Part shown: in pieces, positions 51,141 through 59,080 of the stretch
Numbering within the stretch: the stretch's first letter is position 1
Layout: the number at the start of each line of letters is the position of its first letter
Source: Endomicrobiia bacterium
Lineage (GTDB): Bacteria; Elusimicrobiota; Endomicrobiia; DTEH01
Assembly (NCBI GenBank): GCA_039630545.1
Contig: JBCNUU010000003.1
Location: forward strand, 130,679 to 194,678
Reading direction: 5' to 3'
Length of the DNA: 64,000 bases
Notes under the pieces: generated by a model
Told to the model about the DNA's origin: nothing
The model's input: the letters and a program-made list of their open reading frames with translations, nothing else
The model's database searches: none
Made by a program: the position numbers and the translations under genes

Positions 51141-54100
51141 ATGTTTTTGAAATTAAAAAAATTTTGGTTCTTAACGGGGTTGATGTACTTTACACAAATA
51201 CTCTATTCCCTGCCTCAACCGATAACTGATCTTCAAGTTGTTGAAACTAAATTTAGACAGATAAAAATAAAATGGACTTCTCCTTTATCTGAACAACCTA
51301 TATTGTATTATCAGATAAGAGTTTCAACATACAGAGTATTGACTACAGAAGATGACTGGAATAACAACTCTACTGAAACAAGTTATCCTTACATAGTTGA
51401 AATAGAAACATATTCCCTGCAGGGACAAACAATAAGTTATACTTTTACTAATCTTGAAAATTTTAAAACATACTTTTTTGCAATAAAATCCTCAACTTCT
51501 TCAAATAAAGTTCCTCTTTCTTCGATAGACAACAATCCCTTTAGACCCTATGCTCAACCTGTAAATCATGCTCCTTACTGGTTAGAAATAGCACCTGTTT
51601 GGCCTGCTTATGGAGTATTAGTAACTTCAAACAATTTTGTAGGTTTTGACTTTAAAGACGCATATGACGAAGACCTCAACTACGGAGATAGCCTAAAGTA
51701 TGAACTTTATTATTCTACAAAAGCATCTGCTCTTTTTGGTTCAACTCCTCCTTTACTTACTGGAGCATATATCGGAAGTGTATTTGGAGTTACTACAAGT
51801 TATGTTCAAATTTTAGCTAACAATTTTTCTGACAATACAACCTATTATTGGAGAGTTAAAGTAATAGATTATGAAGAAAAATTTAGCTGGTCTATAGATA
51901 ACTCAGATATCTGTAGGTTTATAATAAATCATACTCCAGAAGTTCCTTCTACATTTACACTTATTTTGCCATATTATGGTAAAAAAATCCAAGAAGTTAC
52001 AGACGGTGTTTTTTTTGACTGGACAGAACCTGCTGATAACGATCCTTTTGATAGATTTACTTATTCGTTGTACATGTCTTCACAGTCACAAAATTCTGGC
52101 TTTTCTTTAGTAGCTGGAGATATTGACTGGTCTTCTTATACATTAAGTAGTATTTTTGGAAGTAATTGGGTTGAGAATCAGAAGTATTTTTGGTTTGTAA
52201 AGGCAAAAGATAGTTATTCTTTGACATCTTATTCTTTGACTTATTATTTTGTAATAAATTCTTACGAAGAACCTCCTTATAATAATTCTTTAATTACTCC
52301 AGGTACTACTGTTTATTTCCCTTTTGATGTTTACAATCCGGCTCATGTGCTTTTTACTTTAAAACCTACATTTTATTGGACAGCCTCATCTGATATTGAT
52401 TTAGAGACAACAATTTATTATCAGTTATTCATATCTTCTTTTTCTTCAAATCCAGATGAATTAAATTCTTTATTTTATACAATTTCGCCGATATTTACTA
52501 CATATTACTATTTATCTCTGGATGTGCTTAAAAACAACACAACTTATTACTGGCAGGTAAGAATATGGGATGAACCCTACAGTGGCTATGCAGTTTATTC
52601 TTCCAGTCCTTTTTGGTTTTTTACTTGTACAACTAACACTCCTCCAAAAGCTGCTATTCTTAAAAAACCTCCTGATAACTTTACTACTTCTTATTTTTAT
52701 CCAAAATTTGAATGGGATACAGGGAAAGACGAAGGCTTTAACGCATCCATAAGTTCTCAAGCTTTTATTTTATGGAATAATTTTGAAACAATATATCTGG
52801 CGGGACTTTCTAAAAATACAAGCTTTTATATTCACTCTGTTGCTTTAAGAAACAACACCACATATTTCTGGCAAGTAATCACCTATGACAACGGCTATCC
52901 TCCGCCTCAACTTTCAAGTGGCTCTGCAATTTTTAGTTTCTATATAAAAAATTCATCACCTTTAGCTTTTAATTTGATTTCTCCTCTTAAAGCACAGATA
53001 GTGCAAACTCAAAATATTCAAATTTTCTGGGAGGAAGCATTAGAACCGGACAGCGAGCCTGTAACCTATAAAGTTATTTATTCTTCAGATAACTTTTTAA
53101 GTCTTACTTCTTCTGATGGTATTAAGACTACAAATTTTATAATACCCAACTTAAAAGACAATACAACATATTGGTGGTATGTATGTGCTTATGATGTATG
53201 GGGGTTTAGAAGTTTTTCTTCAACATTTTACTTTATAGTTGATAACATATCCCAAAACCCGCTTGGTTTTAATTTAGTTTCGCCACAGAATAATTTTTTA
53301 AGTTTGTATCCATCTGTCACATTCTACTGGCAGTCAACTTCAGATCCGGATCCCTTTGAGAGTGTGTCTTATGAAGTTATTATTTCAACTGAGCTTTCTT
53401 TAACTCCTGTATACTTTTCAACAAAAACAGAAAACACATATTTTTATGCCGATGAAAAAATACTTAATATAAATACTACATACTACTGGACGGTTGTAGC
53501 TATCTCTTCAAGAAGTGGCCAGAGTTTTGCGTCCAATGGGCCTTTTAAGTTTTCTGTATATAATACAGCTCCTACCAGGCCCATTTTGATTTTTCCTTTA
53601 GACAAACAGATAATTACTAAATCTAGTTGTACTTTAAGTTGGTCAAGATGTGTTGACTTACAGAATGATGAGTTTTATTACGAATTATACATAAGCACCA
53701 ACAATATAAATTTTGAGAAATTTTATTTAAGCTCTGTCCAAAACGAATTTCAAGTTAACCTGATAGATGATACTACCTACTGGTGGTATGTGGTAGTGGT
53801 AGATACCTTTAACAATAAAAACCACTCAGATACTTCTGTCTTTTATACTTCCTACTATAACATAGCGCCTGCAAAGCCAAAAATTCTTCAACCTGTTGAT
53901 GCACAACTGGTAAATTTACCATATATTATACGCTGGAGTAGCTGTTCAGATTCAGATATTTTTGATAGGGTAAACTATAGAATAGAAATTTCTACAGATG
54001 AAAACTTTTTCTATAAAGTTATAGTTAACTCTCAACCTCACACCTCGTATCTTTTAGAAGAATTTAAACTTTCTTTTGGAACTTATTATTTAAGAGTAAT

Positions 54101-55349
54101 AGCTTATGATACTTCTATTTATGAAAGTTATTCAGACACGATAAGTTTTATAATTCCCTTGTATAATGTTCAGTTATTTTCTCCACAAAATCTTCAAACA
54201 ATTACTGCTTTGCCGATTATTTTTAGCTACTCAAAGGTAGAACCTATAGTTTTACACGATACGATTACTTATAAAATAGTTTACTCAAGCAGTAACAAAT
54301 TTGATTTTAAAAATGAAATAAAAACTTTTTCTACATTTTACTTGGTCTGTTTACCACCTATTTTACCTGCTACATATTTTTGGTATATAGAAGTCTCAGA
54401 TTCGCATTTGAACATGTCAAAAAGTCAAATCTATAGTTTTATAATTCCTTATATATTGCCACCTCCATTGTTAGATGTTTCTGTTTCTACTTCTTCTGAA
54501 GGTTTACTGCTTTCATGGGAAAGTTTAAATTTTGAAAATTTCTGGTGTTATAGAATATATAAAGGGTATGAAACAGAAAACATGCAACTTATAGGTTCAA
54601 CAACAGAGCATTTCTTTTTAGATAGATATGGTTTGCAAGGAGAGTTTTATTATACAATAAAGACAGTAAACCAATTTGGCATTGAAAGTGAAAATAATAA
54701 ATACATCAAACTTTTAAATGGTAAACAGGTAGATTTTTATTTTAGTCAGGATAGAATAGTTACTGTATTAATTCCCAAAACAGAAGGTCTTTCCTGGGTG
54801 GATATACAAAAACTTATCCAGTATGAAAACGAAGTATGTCCTTATGTATATGAAATTTTATCTTCAAAAAACAAAACTGACGATTTTTTTCAAATTCAAT
54901 TCATAAAACCACAGGGTATTGAAAACTACTCTATTCAGTATTATGATGGTAATTTATGGCAAGATATGTTTTCTTATGAAGTTCAAGAAAAAATCACAGT
55001 TAATACTCAATATTTAGGCAGGTACCGTTTAGTGTTACTTCAGGCACCAGATAATAAGAGAATTACCATAATTGGTTGTTCACCCACTAAGAAAATAATT
55101 ACTCCCAATAATGATGGTTACAATGACTATATAGAATTCCACTATGAAGTGGGTTCTTACATTATTGGATATTTATACGATGTAAATTTGAAAAAAATCT
55201 GTAAATTAAAAAATAAAGATAAAAATATATTATATTTTGATGGAAAAAATGAAGATGGAAATTTTATTCCTCCGGGAATTTATATTTATTACATAACATC
55301 ACAGTTAGATAATAGAAGTTTCACAGGAACTGTTGTAATCAAATACTGA
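51141..55349 (+). CDS. Large secreted FN3/Ig-like repeat protein with C-terminal gliding-motility/T9SS type-B-like sorting domain
   Basis: Signal peptide; about 11 repeats of ~100 aa ending in (N/D)TTY(Y/F/W)W-x-V-like strands; C-terminus ITPNNDGYND...FDGKNEDG...PGIYIY...GTVVI. Confidence 0.72.
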   Translation: MFLKLKKFWFLTGLMYFTQILYSLPQPITDLQVVETKFRQIKIKWTSPLSEQPILYYQIRVSTYRVLTTEDDWNNNSTETSYPYIVEIETYSLQGQTISYTFTNLENFKTYFFAIKSSTSSNKVPLSSIDNNPFRPYAQPVNHAPYWLEIAPVWPAYGVLVTSNNFVGFDFKDAYDEDLNYGDSLKYELYYSTKASALFGSTPPLLTGAYIGSVFGVTTSYVQILANNFSDNTTYYWRVKVIDYEEKFSWSIDNSDICRFIINHTPEVPSTFTLILPYYGKKIQEVTDGVFFDWTEPADNDPFDRFTYSLYMSSQSQNSGFSLVAGDIDWSSYTLSSIFGSNWVENQKYFWFVKAKDSYSLTSYSLTYYFVINSYEEPPYNNSLITPGTTVYFPFDVYNPAHVLFTLKPTFYWTASSDIDLETTIYYQLFISSFSSNPDELNSLFYTISPIFTTYYYLSLDVLKNNTTYYWQVRIWDEPYSGYAVYSSSPFWFFTCTTNTPPKAAILKKPPDNFTTSYFYPKFEWDTGKDEGFNASISSQAFILWNNFETIYLAGLSKNTSFYIHSVALRNNTTYFWQVITYDNGYPPPQLSSGSAIFSFYIKNSSPLAFNLISPLKAQIVQTQNIQIFWEEALEPDSEPVTYKVIYSSDNFLSLTSSDGIKTTNFIIPNLKDNTTYWWYVCAYDVWGFRSFSSTFYFIVDNISQNPLGFNLVSPQNNFLSLYPSVTFYWQSTSDPDPFESVSYEVIISTELSLTPVYFSTKTENTYFYADEKILNINTTYYWTVVAISSRSGQSFASNGPFKFSVYNTAPTRPILIFPLDKQIITKSSCTLSWSRCVDLQNDEFYYELYISTNNINFEKFYLSSVQNEFQVNLIDDTTYWWYVVVVDTFNNKNHSDTSVFYTSYYNIAPAKPKILQPVDAQLVNLPYIIRWSSCSDSDIFDRVNYRIEISTDENFFYKVIVNSQPHTSYLLEEFKLSFGTYYLRVIAYDTSIYESYSDTISFIIPLYNVQLFSPQNLQTITALPIIFSYSKVEPIVLHDTITYKIVYSSSNKFDFKNEIKTFSTFYLVCLPPILPATYFWYIEVSDSHLNMSKSQIYSFIIPYILPPPLLDVSVSTSSEGLLLSWESLNFENFWCYRIYKGYETENMQLIGSTTEHFFLDRYGLQGEFYYTIKTVNQFGIESENNKYIKLLNGKQVDFYFSQDRIVTVLIPKTEGLSWVDIQKLIQYENEVCPYVYEILSSKNKTDDFFQIQFIKPQGIENYSIQYYDGNLWQDMFSYEVQEKITVNTQYLGRYRLVLLQAPDNKRITIIGCSPTKKIITPNNDGYNDYIEFHYEVGSYIIGYLYDVNLKKICKLKNKDKNILYFDGKNEDGNFIPPGIYIYYITSQLDNRSFTGTVVIKY

Positions 55350-56782
55350 TGAAAAAGAAAGCTATATTATCTTTTATATTTTTTGTAATTTTTAAAACTG
55401 AAATATTTCCTTTTACTGAAATTTCTTTTGTAGGTTATCCGTTTTCTGTAAATAGTGTAGTTATTAATCCTGCAGCAGCTGGATTGCTTAATAATAAGTT
55501 CAATATAGAATTAGGCTATGGATGGTTATATGGAAATGTTTTAGAAAATGCTTTATATACTACCCAGATAGCTTCTGCAGTAAACTTAAAAAAAGTATTT
55601 CTGGGTCTGCTTCAGGAAGCTTTTGTATTAGAAAATATTTATTCAGAAGAAGTTTATATATTAAATTTTGGATGTAAACTTCTTAATAAAAAAATTTTTT
55701 TGGCAAGTGCTTTTAGATATTATGTTTTTAAATATTTCTATGATGAATACTACGAAAACGATCCTTTGAAAGAAGATCGAGTTTTTACATATAATTTTGA
55801 TTTGGGGTTAATATGTGAACTTTTTAATAATCTTTTTGTTTCATTAAGCGGTATAAATATATATGAAAACCGACTCGGAAAAGAAATTAATTTTTTGTTG
55901 CCTAAAAAGTATATTTTTGCTTTGTTTTATAAATATCTTGATGAAGGTTCTTTTAATTTTGAGGTAGATTTTAAACACATACAGATCTCTGACCGGAAAC
56001 AAAATGAACTAAGTTATAAGTTGGGAATATCTCAAAGGGTTTTTTCTTTTAGAAATTTTAGTTTTGACTTATCAGCTTTTTTAAGAAAAGACGGAGATTC
56101 CTTTGGATTTTTTTTCTCATTTTATAATAAATTTCTCAATAAGTTAGGGTTAAGATATATATGGGAGTATCCAGTATCTGATATACAAAAGTTTATAGGC
56201 AACCATTACATTATTTTAGATTTTGAATTTGGAAAAAAAACACAACCTGTTATAGAAGAAAAGTCTCTTACAGAAAAGAAAACATTAAAAGAACAAAAGC
56301 AGTCACAACCCGCATCTATAGATGGGAGTTCTTTATCTAAAGAGCAACTCAAACAAGAAGTTTCAAAACCAGAAATAAAGATATCTACAATTTCACCGAG
56401 CTTCAAAGAGTTAGAAACAAAAACATACCAGTTAACACAAAAATCCACAAATTTCGAAGGGTCTCCGTCTAAAGAAGAAAAAATCGCTTTAGAAAAAAAG
56501 CTTTATTTATTAGATGTTTCGACACATCCCTTAATTTCAAAAACCACACCTTATAAAGAACCTCAACCTAAAAAAGAACAACTACCACCCACCAAACCAC
56601 TTGTTTTATATTATAAATTTCCTTTAGCGCATAAAGTTAAAGAGGGAGAAACTCTTATTAGCATTTCAAAGAAATATTATAATACTGAGAAATACTGGAA
56701 AAAGATATACGAAGCAAACAAAGACAAAATAATAAAAGGAGTCCCAATAGTAGGGGAGATTTTAATAATTCCTGAGCCTTGA
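55349..56782 (+). CDS. PorP/SprF/PorV-like outer-membrane beta-barrel fused to C-terminal LysM
   Basis: Signal peptide, NPAxxG motif, alternating aromatic beta strands ending NHYIILDFEFG, K/E/S/P/T-rich linker, LysM HKVKEGETLISISKKYY...WKKIYEAN...LIIP. Confidence 0.68.
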   Translation: MKKKAILSFIFFVIFKTEIFPFTEISFVGYPFSVNSVVINPAAAGLLNNKFNIELGYGWLYGNVLENALYTTQIASAVNLKKVFLGLLQEAFVLENIYSEEVYILNFGCKLLNKKIFLASAFRYYVFKYFYDEYYENDPLKEDRVFTYNFDLGLICELFNNLFVSLSGINIYENRLGKEINFLLPKKYIFALFYKYLDEGSFNFEVDFKHIQISDRKQNELSYKLGISQRVFSFRNFSFDLSAFLRKDGDSFGFFFSFYNKFLNKLGLRYIWEYPVSDIQKFIGNHYIILDFEFGKKTQPVIEEKSLTEKKTLKEQKQSQPASIDGSSLSKEQLKQEVSKPEIKISTISPSFKELETKTYQLTQKSTNFEGSPSKEEKIALEKKLYLLDVSTHPLISKTTPYKEPQPKKEQLPPTKPLVLYYKFPLAHKVKEGETLISISKKYYNTEKYWKKIYEANKDKIIKGVPIVGEILIIPEP

Positions 56783-56969: not shown

Positions 56970-57929
56970 ATGGTAGATGAGGAAGAAAAATTTTATAGCT
57001 GGGAGGAAATAGAAAAAGAACTCTCAGAACTTGAACTTCAGTATGGTGACAGTGACGAAATAGTAAAAAATCTCATAACACCGTCAGTGTCAGCATACTG
57101 GAGAAAAAAATTAGAAGAAGAAAAAATTTTATATGAAAAAATGCTGCAAACCAAAGAGGAAGAAAAAAAACAGATTTTGTTAAAATTACAACAGCAACAG
57201 GAAATAATAGAGGATTTAAAAAAACAAATAGAAAAGTTAGAACGAGGAGAATACGAAAAGTTAAAAGACAAATACGAAGAACTTAAACTCAAAGAAATAG
57301 AGATAGAAAAAGAAAAAGAAAAAATTATCTGGCAACAACAAATTCAAGGACTTGAGTTTGATAAAAAAATAATTCAGCAAGAAATTGAAAAGACTAAAAG
57401 AGAGTATGAACAACAAAAACAGGAGTTGCTTGTCTACTATAACAGACAATTTAGTTCTTTATTGGAAGTTCAAAATCAACTGCTTGAAGAAACAAATAGT
57501 TTAGAACAGGAAATTGACAATATAATTAAAGAAACAAAAGAAGAGATTTTAAAAGCAAATAAACAGATAGAAGACTACTCAAAAGAAATAAATAACTTGA
57601 AAACGATTATAGAGAGTATAAAACAAGAAAAAGAAATTATTCTTACAGAAAAAAATAATTTAGTCAAAAAAATAGAAGAAATAAAACAACAATCTTTTCA
57701 AGACAAAAGACAACTTTTGACAGCGATAGTTCAAAATGTTAAAATTTATATAAATGACATAAGAAGTTTATGTGGTTTAATAATAGCTGCTGTTAATTTT
57801 ATGATGAAACATTCAAAATTTAAAAAATCTGCCAGATTTCATCAAGAGCTTATTCTTAACACTGTTCAACGGATAATAAGTATCTTGGATGAAATTATTA
57901 AGTCAATACTTGAATATCCAATAGTATAA
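56970..57929 (+). CDS. Coiled-coil protein with degenerate HisKA/DHp-like C-terminus
   Basis: Long E/K/Q heptad region; C-terminal INDIRSLCGLIIAAVNFM...ELILNTVQRIISILDEII. Confidence 0.6.
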   Translation: MVDEEEKFYSWEEIEKELSELELQYGDSDEIVKNLITPSVSAYWRKKLEEEKILYEKMLQTKEEEKKQILLKLQQQQEIIEDLKKQIEKLERGEYEKLKDKYEELKLKEIEIEKEKEKIIWQQQIQGLEFDKKIIQQEIEKTKREYEQQKQELLVYYNRQFSSLLEVQNQLLEETNSLEQEIDNIIKETKEEILKANKQIEDYSKEINNLKTIIESIKQEKEIILTEKNNLVKKIEEIKQQSFQDKRQLLTAIVQNVKIYINDIRSLCGLIIAAVNFMMKHSKFKKSARFHQELILNTVQRIISILDEIIKSILEYPIV

Positions 57930-57931
57930 AA

Positions 57932-59080
57932 ATGGATGAAAAATTATTATTTGTTTATTCTAAAGAAAAAAGGATATACCTTCCTGAAGTTTTATTTAAA
58001 GAATACCAAATAAGAGCGATACCTTCTAACTTAAAAATATCAAGAGAAATTCTTGAATATAAACCACAGATAATATTATTAGATGAATTTGTACAGTTTG
58101 GGTTAGCGAAAAAAATATGTAACAGGTTTAAATTTATACCGATTGGAATAGTAGGATACTTTGAAAAACCCAAAAAAATTGAAAATTTTTTAGAGTTAGG
58201 CGTGAATATAATAAATCTTAATCAGCCTCAAGAAGAGATAAATTCAACCATAAAAAATCTTTTATGGTTTTCTTTGTCAAAACAAGAGATATGGGATGAA
58301 GAATATAAAATTTCTAAAAGTGAGAACATAAAAGAGAAAATCTGGAACATTTCTAAAATTTTTATTGAAATATTTGTGATTTTATTATTAGTAGTAGGTG
58401 TACCTAAACTTTACAATTTTATTATTTCGCACAAAAAACTTTTTTATGAGTTAGATGTTGGTTATATCACTGCATGTGATGTATGTATTGTGGGAGATAG
58501 ATACATACTTAACGATTGGACATTGAGAAATTTATTTGAATATGGACAAACAAATGATAAGCTTCTTAAGATGTATGTTCCGCAGGAGCAAATAAATTCT
58601 TTATCTGTTAATCACAGCTATGCTGTAGCATTTTCTATGTTTACAGAGAAGATTTATTTATATAAATATCCTGAGTTTTCTTTGATTACATCTACAGAGC
58701 TGTTAAAAAATACAACAGTTTTGTCTATTTATATAGATGAAAACAATCACCTTTATCTTTTAGACAATAAATCCGCATTTTATGAATTTGTAATAAAAGA
58801 TAATAGATTTGTTTTTATTTCATCCTTTGTAATAAAGGAAATTTTTCCTTTGGATGTTGTAGTGAAAAATGAAGATATCTATATTCTTGACAATGCGAAT
58901 AATATACATAGATTGAAAAAAAATAGTTATAAAAAAGAAAAAACTATAGTTTTTTCTCAATTTTTTGATATTAAACAATATAAATTCAGCTCATTTGCTT
59001 TTAGTGAAAGGTGGCTTTATTTAGTAAGTGAAAAAGATAAAAAAGTATTTAAGTTACCTACTAATATCTTGAAAATATAA
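57932..59080 (+). CDS. Membrane protein: degenerate receiver-like N-domain, one TM helix, beta-propeller-like C-domain
   Basis: KPQIILLD and IPIGIV, TM IFIEIFVILLLVVGV, repeated LYLLDN/IYILDN/LYLVSE blades. Confidence 0.55.
   Translation: MDEKLLFVYSKEKRIYLPEVLFKEYQIRAIPSNLKISREILEYKPQIILLDEFVQFGLAKKICNRFKFIPIGIVGYFEKPKKIENFLELGVNIINLNQPQEEINSTIKNLLWFSLSKQEIWDEEYKISKSENIKEKIWNISKIFIEIFVILLLVVGVPKLYNFIISHKKLFYELDVGYITACDVCIVGDRYILNDWTLRNLFEYGQTNDKLLKMYVPQEQINSLSVNHSYAVAFSMFTEKIYLYKYPEFSLITSTELLKNTTVLSIYIDENNHLYLLDNKSAFYEFVIKDNRFVFISSFVIKEIFPLDVVVKNEDIYILDNANNIHRLKKNSYKKEKTIVFSQFFDIKQYKFSSFAFSERWLYLVSEKDKKVFKLPTNILKI

Follow-up and report, generated by a model that had tools for sequence, protein, structure and literature searches.

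How does a bacterium outside the Bacteroidota come to encode a protein with the hallmarks of type IX secretion system (T9SS) cargo, and what would hold such a protein at the cell surface? The question is raised by a 64,000-nt stretch of DNA from an Endomicrobiia bacterium (GenBank assembly GCA_039630545.1, contig JBCNUU010000003.1, positions 130,679 to 194,678 of the forward strand), hereafter the window, in which two adjacent genes at positions 51,141 to 56,782 encode a large protein with a T9SS-like C-terminal domain (CTD), the cargo, and a beta-barrel protein that ends in a LysM domain, the carrier. We conclude that the pair is real and conserved, a type B surface-display variant that belongs to an SprA-based system without the known motor. 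Its best explanation, which we hold to be probable, is a carrier of T9SS type B character that brings its own wall anchor: a surface stalk would be exported through an SprA-like pore and held by the barrel, whose LysM domain would attach to the wall. A first-pass annotation of the window had proposed a T9SS-like cargo and barrel with its own anchor, and the parts that stand are the T9SS-like cargo and the fused LysM, together with an SprA homologue and paralogous pairs elsewhere in the genome. The pair is composed as follows.

51141..55349, forward strand: cargo open reading frame (ORF), 1402 aa, defined from the ORF list, Pfam, a self-built hidden Markov model (HMM) and orthologues
51198..54713, forward strand: 11 FN3-like repeats (residues 20-1191), from domain matches to the self-built HMM
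55092..55346, forward strand: C-terminal sorting-like domain, CHU_C/type-B-like, from sub-cut-off matches to PF13585 and TIGR04131
55347..55351, forward strand: TGATG stop/start overlap, read from the sequence
55349..56782, forward strand: carrier ORF, 477 aa, comprising hatch, 14-strand barrel, 126-aa linker and LysM
55499..56230, forward strand: predicted 14-stranded beta-barrel of FadL/PorV fold (residues 51-294), from an AlphaFold2 model, Foldseek and a family profile
55727..55783, forward strand: predicted extracellular loop 3 (residues 127-145) with a DEYY motif, a candidate cargo-gripping loop, from length comparison
56237..56614, forward strand: disordered linker (residues 297-422), predicted periplasmic, from a predicted local distance difference test score (pLDDT) below 50 for residues 299-418 and from composition
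56630..56773, forward strand: LysM domain (residues 428-475), PF01476 above cut-off

The two genes are tightly coupled. The TGA of the cargo (55347-55349) and the ATG of the carrier (55349-55351) share one base, the gap between cargo and barrel ranges from -4 to +94 nt in 11 related loci (-1 to +12 in the nine closest), and the adjacency is retained in all nine of the closest loci with upstream DNA. The cargo starts 4 nt after the end of pheT, and the order pheS-pheT-cargo-barrel is common to six of the 10 closest loci found in GTDB genomes. Those 10 loci, at 34-50% identity, all come from Endomicrobia/Elusimicrobia records, which confirms the suspected lineage outside the Bacteroidota, and 5 of 21 protein homologues carry names that include Endomicrobia or Endomicrobiia. 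The host groups with Endomicrobiia (Elusimicrobiota) and is an uncultured hot-spring member of that phylum, with a genome of 1.6 Mb that is 29% G+C and 95.5% complete; the three sequencing runs containing this DNA are hot-spring metagenomes from one study, which may be its source, and no RNA data set is listed as containing the region. Both proteins have signal-peptide-like N-termini, with a basic start and a hydrophobic core as judged by eye. The first-pass annotation had read both ORFs, their TGATG coupling, the linker and the LysM correctly; its NPAxxG motif is NPAAAG at residues 40-45 of the carrier, and the low-complexity linker that it put at about 125 aa spans 126 residues rich in K, E, S, L, T and P. 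It had the cargo ending ITPNNDGYND...PGIYIY, and both motifs do lie within the last 90 residues, but the actual end is ...TGTVVIKY.

After its signal-peptide-like start the cargo runs through the 11 tandem FN3/Ig-like repeats (counted as domain matches to an HMM built from eight of its own repeats) and a beta domain of about 100 aa to the T9SS-like tail. A Pfam scan returned Ig_Rha78A_N, fn3 and a weak CHU_C match at the end, and found no catalytic domain; a surface stalk or adhesin without enzyme activity is the likely role of the cargo. Eight full-length orthologues are 43-64% identical to it. The CHU_C model PF13585 (cut-off 27 bits) scores 19.2 bits with the whole cargo and 24.4 bits with its last 205 aa, and TIGR04131 (cut-off 35) scores 19.4 bits. 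Among 10 aligned orthologue tails, PF13585 matches all 10 (best E 1.8e-11) and TIGR04131 matches eight (best 4.8e-6), and the type A model PF18962 matches one. On these profile scores the CTD appears nearer to type B than to type A and is best called type-B-leaning. Atlas features for it are divided between CHU_C and FlgD_ig, and the CTD alignment had no significant match among PDB sequences (best E 0.44; FlgD 0.58).

The carrier is a 14-stranded barrel as modelled with AlphaFold2 from a 22-sequence alignment, in agreement with the roughly 14 strands first suggested for it. The strands span residues 51-294, 10-residue pLDDT blocks range from 69 to 95 and are mostly at least 86, and two short helices (residues 34-46) form an N-terminal hatch. 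Foldseek matches the model to the 14-strand barrels CymD, OmpG, FadL, TodX and PorV (8gl6_F); the highest query TM of the rows listed, 0.44, is that of PorV, with an rmsd (root-mean-square deviation) of 4.5 over 347 columns. A 10-sequence family profile matches PorV 6h3i_F (E 1.6e-4) and no other barrel in the PDB. Structural look-alikes in the Atlas (TM 0.81-0.90) fall in clusters mostly labelled PorP_SprF, and one such cluster has 111 members, 83% of them with LysM and with Elusimicrobiota as the commonest taxon. We tested NCBIfam models on 33 of 150 listed representatives, picked for spanning barrel and LysM: the PorV/PorQ family (NF033709, PorV_fam) matches 29 of these 33, one above cut-off, and PorP/SprF matches eight, none above cut-off. 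By sequence profile, the family therefore scores better with PorV/PorQ than with PorP. Of the two marks of a PorP/SprF protein that we considered, a 14-strand FadL-family barrel is present in the model, and an HMM match better than that to PorV/PorQ is lacking. Relative L035 and paralogue C12:27267 pass PF11751 (PorP/SprF), and the latter falls among the barrel-LysM rows of our tree. Databases already give PorP_SprF-type names to Elusimicrobiota proteins; the carrier is best filed as a PorV/PorP-superfamily barrel rather than as a certified PorP.

The strand number is even, and on standard barrel topology the C-terminal tail of the carrier would therefore lie on the periplasmic side. The spacer that leads from barrel to LysM is 74-346 aa long in relatives (median 106). 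The LysM itself scores 23.1 bits with PF01476 (cut-off 20.9), its fold is also present in the AlphaFold2 model, and it is the best conserved part of the barrel-LysM family; it is predicted to bind peptidoglycan. How widely the arrangement holds was surveyed in 40 regions, 36 chosen for a barrel-plus-LysM match and four for a match to the beta-propeller described below, all among the matches listed, with 151 weaker matches lying outside those sampled. The survey holds 37 barrel-LysM genes from 28 genomes and 14 families; two regions (L094, L095) failed the barrel HMM and are uncounted, and some regions repeat the set of closest loci. A CTD cargo lies directly upstream of 26 of the 37. Loop 3 measures 19-24 aa in each of the 26 barrels that adjoin a cargo gene and 23 aa in two others that are followed by a large gene; in the nine barrels without cargo it measures 7-17 aa. 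A long loop 3 thus goes with an adjacent large gene, which lends indirect support to its predicted role in holding the cargo. A barrel-LysM clade with short outer loops and neither cargo nor kinase, followed by a (receiver-)membrane-propeller gene, was seen in L082, L083, L085-L090 and L092.

The pair belongs to a genome-wide system. Iterated HMM searches of the 1527 ORFs of at least 100 aa in the host genome found 32 CTD proteins and 18 barrels. The paralogous pairs and the SprA homologue that the first-pass annotation suggested looking for are both there. Thirteen of the 18 barrels lie directly behind a CTD gene and two more directly before one, and 19 of the 32 CTD proteins have no barrel directly downstream. 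Among the CTD cargo of this genome are enzymes of GH5 and GH8, FN3 proteins and a peptidase; the barrel tails vary among OmpA, TPR, helix-hairpin-helix, zinc ribbon and LysM. The candidate pore is a SprA/Sov-like ORF of 1733 aa (L007:10847-16048; G000:C12), three stretches of which match TIGR04189 below cut-off (best E 1e-12), and a SprA-like match is found in 275 of 301 genomes of the phylum, in ORFs mostly of 1750-1950 aa. A single SprA-like sequence found no match in the PDB, but a profile of 14 sequences has F. johnsoniae SprA (6H3I/6H3J) as its only PDB match, at E 5e-29, and also finds a 2343-aa ORF in a Bacteroidota control genome (G301). The profile has no match in four genomes that are neither Elusimicrobiota nor Bacteroidota (those containing loci L036, L038, L041 and L048), which are too few to bound its range.

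Neither the ring (PorK/PorN) nor the motor (PorL/PorM) of T9SS was detected. The GldM and GldN models matched none of 111 genomes and scored far above cut-off in the positive control G301 (E 3e-116 and 2e-76, respectively), GldK and GldL were not found in the host genome, the one genome searched for them, and the PorK-N homologues that the first-pass annotation suggested looking for are undetected. The PorU sortase (peptidase C25) was likewise not found in the host genome, in a search that had no positive control for the family. Very divergent Gld or PorU counterparts could escape these models. An autoproteolytic H-F/L-S motif before the CTD, an idea of the ZU5/GPS type, was considered as a PorU substitute and rejected as a rule: the pattern occurs in two of the 32 CTD proteins, one of the two matches lies within the signal peptide, and this cargo does not have it.

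Several neighbourhoods of the wider system deserve record in their own right. At L009:4977-19594 (G000:C6), ExbB-ExbD-ExbD genes stand directly before a long-tailed barrel and a series of cargo/barrel pairs that includes GH8, GH9 and CBM proteins; the Exb genes are candidates for energising either export or sugar uptake. A small CTD protein and a barrel-OmpA fusion, which would be a second way to build a wall anchor into a barrel, lie just before pal-cpoB-tolA-tolB-like genes (identified by eye) at L012:5696-12563 (G000:C1). A cellulase-type set of GH5, GH8, GH9, GH44, GH48, CBM9 and CBM11, several with a CTD, is spread over L009, L010, L013 and L015 (G000:C6, C12, C1). A CTD-bearing ORF at G000:C34:121050-141206 has at least 6718 aa and runs past the contig end. 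At L020:441-9315 (G000:C5), behind FN3/LTD cargo, a CTD phospholipase D-like protein is followed by a barrel-helix-hairpin-helix fusion and a 609-aa barrel-like protein.

How the pair might work is suggested by the Bacteroidota. Type B substrates are there described as staying on dedicated carriers (PMC10994853, PMC12635249). They remain bound to cognate PorP/SprF barrels, with those linked to PorE proposed to be static (PMC9143113, PMC12618676); PorE is proposed in the same two papers to bridge PorP and peptidoglycan for non-mobile cargo, and in PMC12204202 is treated in Bacteroidetes only. By analogy, Sec would carry the cargo across the inner membrane, the CTD would be recognised at the SprA-like pore by the cognate barrel and bind to it, and the cargo is predicted to leave the pore bound to the outer loops of that barrel. 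The CTD would be retained uncleaved as in type B systems, a reading favoured because no PorU was found. The periplasmic linker and LysM would then pin the loaded carrier to the cell wall, a static anchoring in which the LysM tail may replace PorE, one polypeptide doing for its barrel the job that the PorE lipoprotein does for PorP.

A number of observations weigh against this account. The cargo CTD falls under both type B cut-offs, TIGR04131 and PF13585, and the type A model TIGR04183 also matches six of the 10 orthologue tails (best 3.8e-4). The window barrel has no Pfam or NCBIfam barrel match at all, and small-molecule channels outrank PorV by Foldseek E-value, PorV coming 20th. In the HMM checks proposed at the outset for tail and barrel, both proteins missed the curated type B CTD and PorP/SprF cut-offs. 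In none of the 301 genomes does the SprA-like protein reach the TIGR04189 cut-off, and F. johnsoniae SprA is longer than it by about 670 aa. No CTD gene lies directly upstream of 11 of the 37 barrel-LysM genes, and the nine cargo-less barrels form a single clade (SH-aLRT 100 in a quick tree of 55 rows), so that the loop-length correlation rests on one evolutionary event and not nine. Wall binding by the LysM is not assured, because its nearest solved relative by sequence is Kbp, potassium-binding by PDB title. Finally, there is the missing Gld energy chain: according to PMC10994853, release of carrier and cargo in F. johnsoniae needs it. The account thus names no force that would free a loaded carrier from the pore. 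None of the outcomes that the first-pass annotation had named as fatal was found: the second protein does model as a barrel, the C-terminal domain does match CHU_C-type models, though below cut-off, and the genome is not that of a Bacteroidota with a canonical T9SS.

What was first taken for a two-gene module is a genuine pair inside a larger unit. Two further genes follow it.

56970..57929, forward strand: coiled-coil pseudo-histidine kinase, 319 aa, from alignment with intact kinases of related modules and from hydropathy
57932..59080, forward strand: degenerate receiver, one membrane helix (about residues 140-158) and NHL-type beta-propeller, 382 aa

The 187-nt gap before the kinase relic holds one promoter-like site (2.8 expected by chance) and, in a promoter/terminator scan, no terminator. 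The pseudo-kinase has no membrane helix and ends after its dimerisation helices, with no ATPase domain, and at the position of its phospho-His the window copy has Asn, while its six aligned orthologues have Asn or a different residue; the receiver keeps the Asp of its phospho site and has lost the acidic pocket and Lys. The window copy does not qualify as an active two-component pair. In the survey, a kinase-like gene lies directly downstream of 25 of the 37 barrel-LysM genes, with the His-box intact in six of the 25 and lost in 19, and a membrane-anchored beta-propeller, preceded within its protein by a receiver or TPR domain, lies no more than 2.6 kb downstream of 31 of the 37 (32 if longer overlap is allowed). 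The propeller is thus the most constant neighbour of the barrel-LysM gene (32/37), ahead of the cargo (26/37), and the conserved unit usually has four genes: cargo, barrel-LysM, kinase-like and receiver/TPR-membrane-propeller. The module is patchy, one family (f20) having any match in only one of 35 genomes. Within the account that we favour, the kinase relic and the receiver-membrane-propeller protein are likely the inner-membrane end of the module, here working without phosphotransfer.

Variants of the unit include a paralogous four-gene module at L008:4795-14212 (G000:C56), with a 1916-aa FN3 cargo, a 448-aa barrel-coiled coil-LysM protein, a 390-aa kinase that lacks the His and has an ATPase domain, and a TPR-membrane-propeller protein. 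Both paralogous modules stand in tandem in L062 and L067, and L035 has the module in a record titled Ignavibacteria.

The alternative that survives best would add to the anchor rather than replace it. It makes the module a trans-envelope relay, in which surface contact is sensed and passed from the barrel tail and LysM to the propeller, the receiver and the soluble kinase, the window copy being a phosphorylation-free relic. We regard it as tentative. The constancy of the propeller speaks for it, since that gene is kept in all nine members of the clade without cargo and kinase, as do the kinases with intact His-boxes and the locus L032, where an intact HisKA/HATPase_c kinase accompanies an intact receiver (PF00072); L093 is another intact kinase/receiver pair. 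A 683-aa protein at L091:8684-10735 joins the kinase coiled coil, a degenerate middle, a membrane helix and the propeller in one chain; the long barrel-to-LysM spacer and a kinase without a membrane sensor of its own also fit, and PorA, proposed in PMC7712824 to signal from the surface to PorXY, offers a loose precedent. However, the window kinase has neither His nor ATPase, its receiver has neither acidic pocket nor Lys, the His is gone in most of the kinase-like neighbours, and a DNA-binding output domain is absent. Further, conservation is poor in the propeller (mean column identity 27%) and good in the LysM, a difference more in keeping with a ligand that does not vary, such as peptidoglycan, than with a protein partner that does.

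A simpler proposal, which we consider improbable, is that the barrel serves as a channel for small molecules in the manner of FadL, or simply as an OmpA-like tether between outer membrane and wall, and that the upstream cargo is independent of it and served by a general carrier. It can draw on the best Foldseek E-values, which belong to CymD, OmpG and FadL, and on the clade of nine barrel-LysM genes that persists without adjacent cargo. That clade, however, has lost the long outer loops, the sequence profiles favour PorV/PorP and not FadL, and the coupling to CTD genes is tight, in 26 of 37 relatives and 13 of the 18 barrels of the genome. That the barrel itself translocates its partner, as in two-partner or Slam-like systems, with no need of an SprA-like pore, is very unlikely: no T9SS ring or motor was found and the pairs are gene-coupled as in two-partner systems, but the modelled barrel is hatched and has only 14 strands, the SprA homologue is nearly universal in the phylum, and the 19 of 32 CTD proteins without a downstream barrel imply that a shared pore is needed.

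The anchored-carrier account remains the one that we prefer, and it bears on where T9SS occurs. T9SS genes were stated in 2024 to be absent from phyla outside the FCB group (PMC11285876), yet a SprA homologue is close to a core gene in Elusimicrobiota, a phylum placed with the PVC group in a preprint (bioRxiv 10.1101/2023.11.21.568195) that itself does not use the term T9SS; in PMC7031533 and PMC8542988 the term appears only within reference lists. In the literature that could be searched we found no description of T9SS parts in Elusimicrobiota or of a LysM-fused carrier, although tables of genome annotation may already list these genes. One 1.6-Mb genome combines 32 CTD proteins and 18 carrier-like barrels with no detectable ring, motor or sortase, and if export does work in this way, a minimal T9SS, and the Gld energy chain as an add-on to it, become testable questions. 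The module would be a one-protein version of the PorP-PorE anchor, linked to a two-component pair, a link that we have not found in print. A more speculative reading joins a stripped-down type IX-like export (SprA pore, one carrier per cargo, no GldKLMN) to a module acting as a chain from surface to cytoplasm. The order of that chain, equally conjectural, would be FN3 stalk, barrel, LysM tail, inner-membrane propeller, receiver and soluble kinase. Were it true, it would amount to a new kind of device for sensing contact or for anchoring, and to a living model of T9SS in a state that precedes, or dispenses with, the motor.

Set beside known systems, the locus most resembles the type B clusters SprB-SprF and Fjoh_3952-3951-3950 of F. 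johnsoniae and PG1035-PorP-PorE of P. gingivalis. As in those clusters, a CHU_C/TIGR04131-like cargo stands directly before a 14-strand FadL-family barrel, and many such pairs recur as paralogues in a genome; the gene cluster also encodes a beta-propeller and a domain of peptidoglycan-binding type, and the carrier has a predicted periplasmic C-terminal tail, comparable to the tail by which SprF attaches to GldK (PMC12635249). Unlike them, it has a LysM fused to the barrel by a linker of about 125 aa in place of the OmpA_C of a separate PorE lipoprotein, its propeller follows a receiver and is anchored in the inner membrane, the unit includes a kinase relic, the phylum is Elusimicrobiota, and scores fall below the family cut-offs. 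With T9SS as a whole it shares a SprA homologue, PorV/PorQ-like barrels and CTD cargo that include GH5 and GH8 enzymes, but GldK/L/M/N and PorU are undetected, the SprA-like protein has about 1750-1900 aa instead of 2403, and one carrier per cargo looks like the rule. FadL, TodX and CymD have the same 14-strand barrel, N-terminal hatch and NPA motif, at 8-10% identity, whereas the C-terminal linker-LysM and the coupling to CTD proteins set the carrier apart. Finally, relatives of both downstream genes have the intact HisKA, HATPase_c and Response_reg domains of two-component systems; here, in contrast, a soluble kinase with a long coiled coil accompanies a regulator that ends in a membrane helix and a periplasmic propeller, and in the window both are degenerate.

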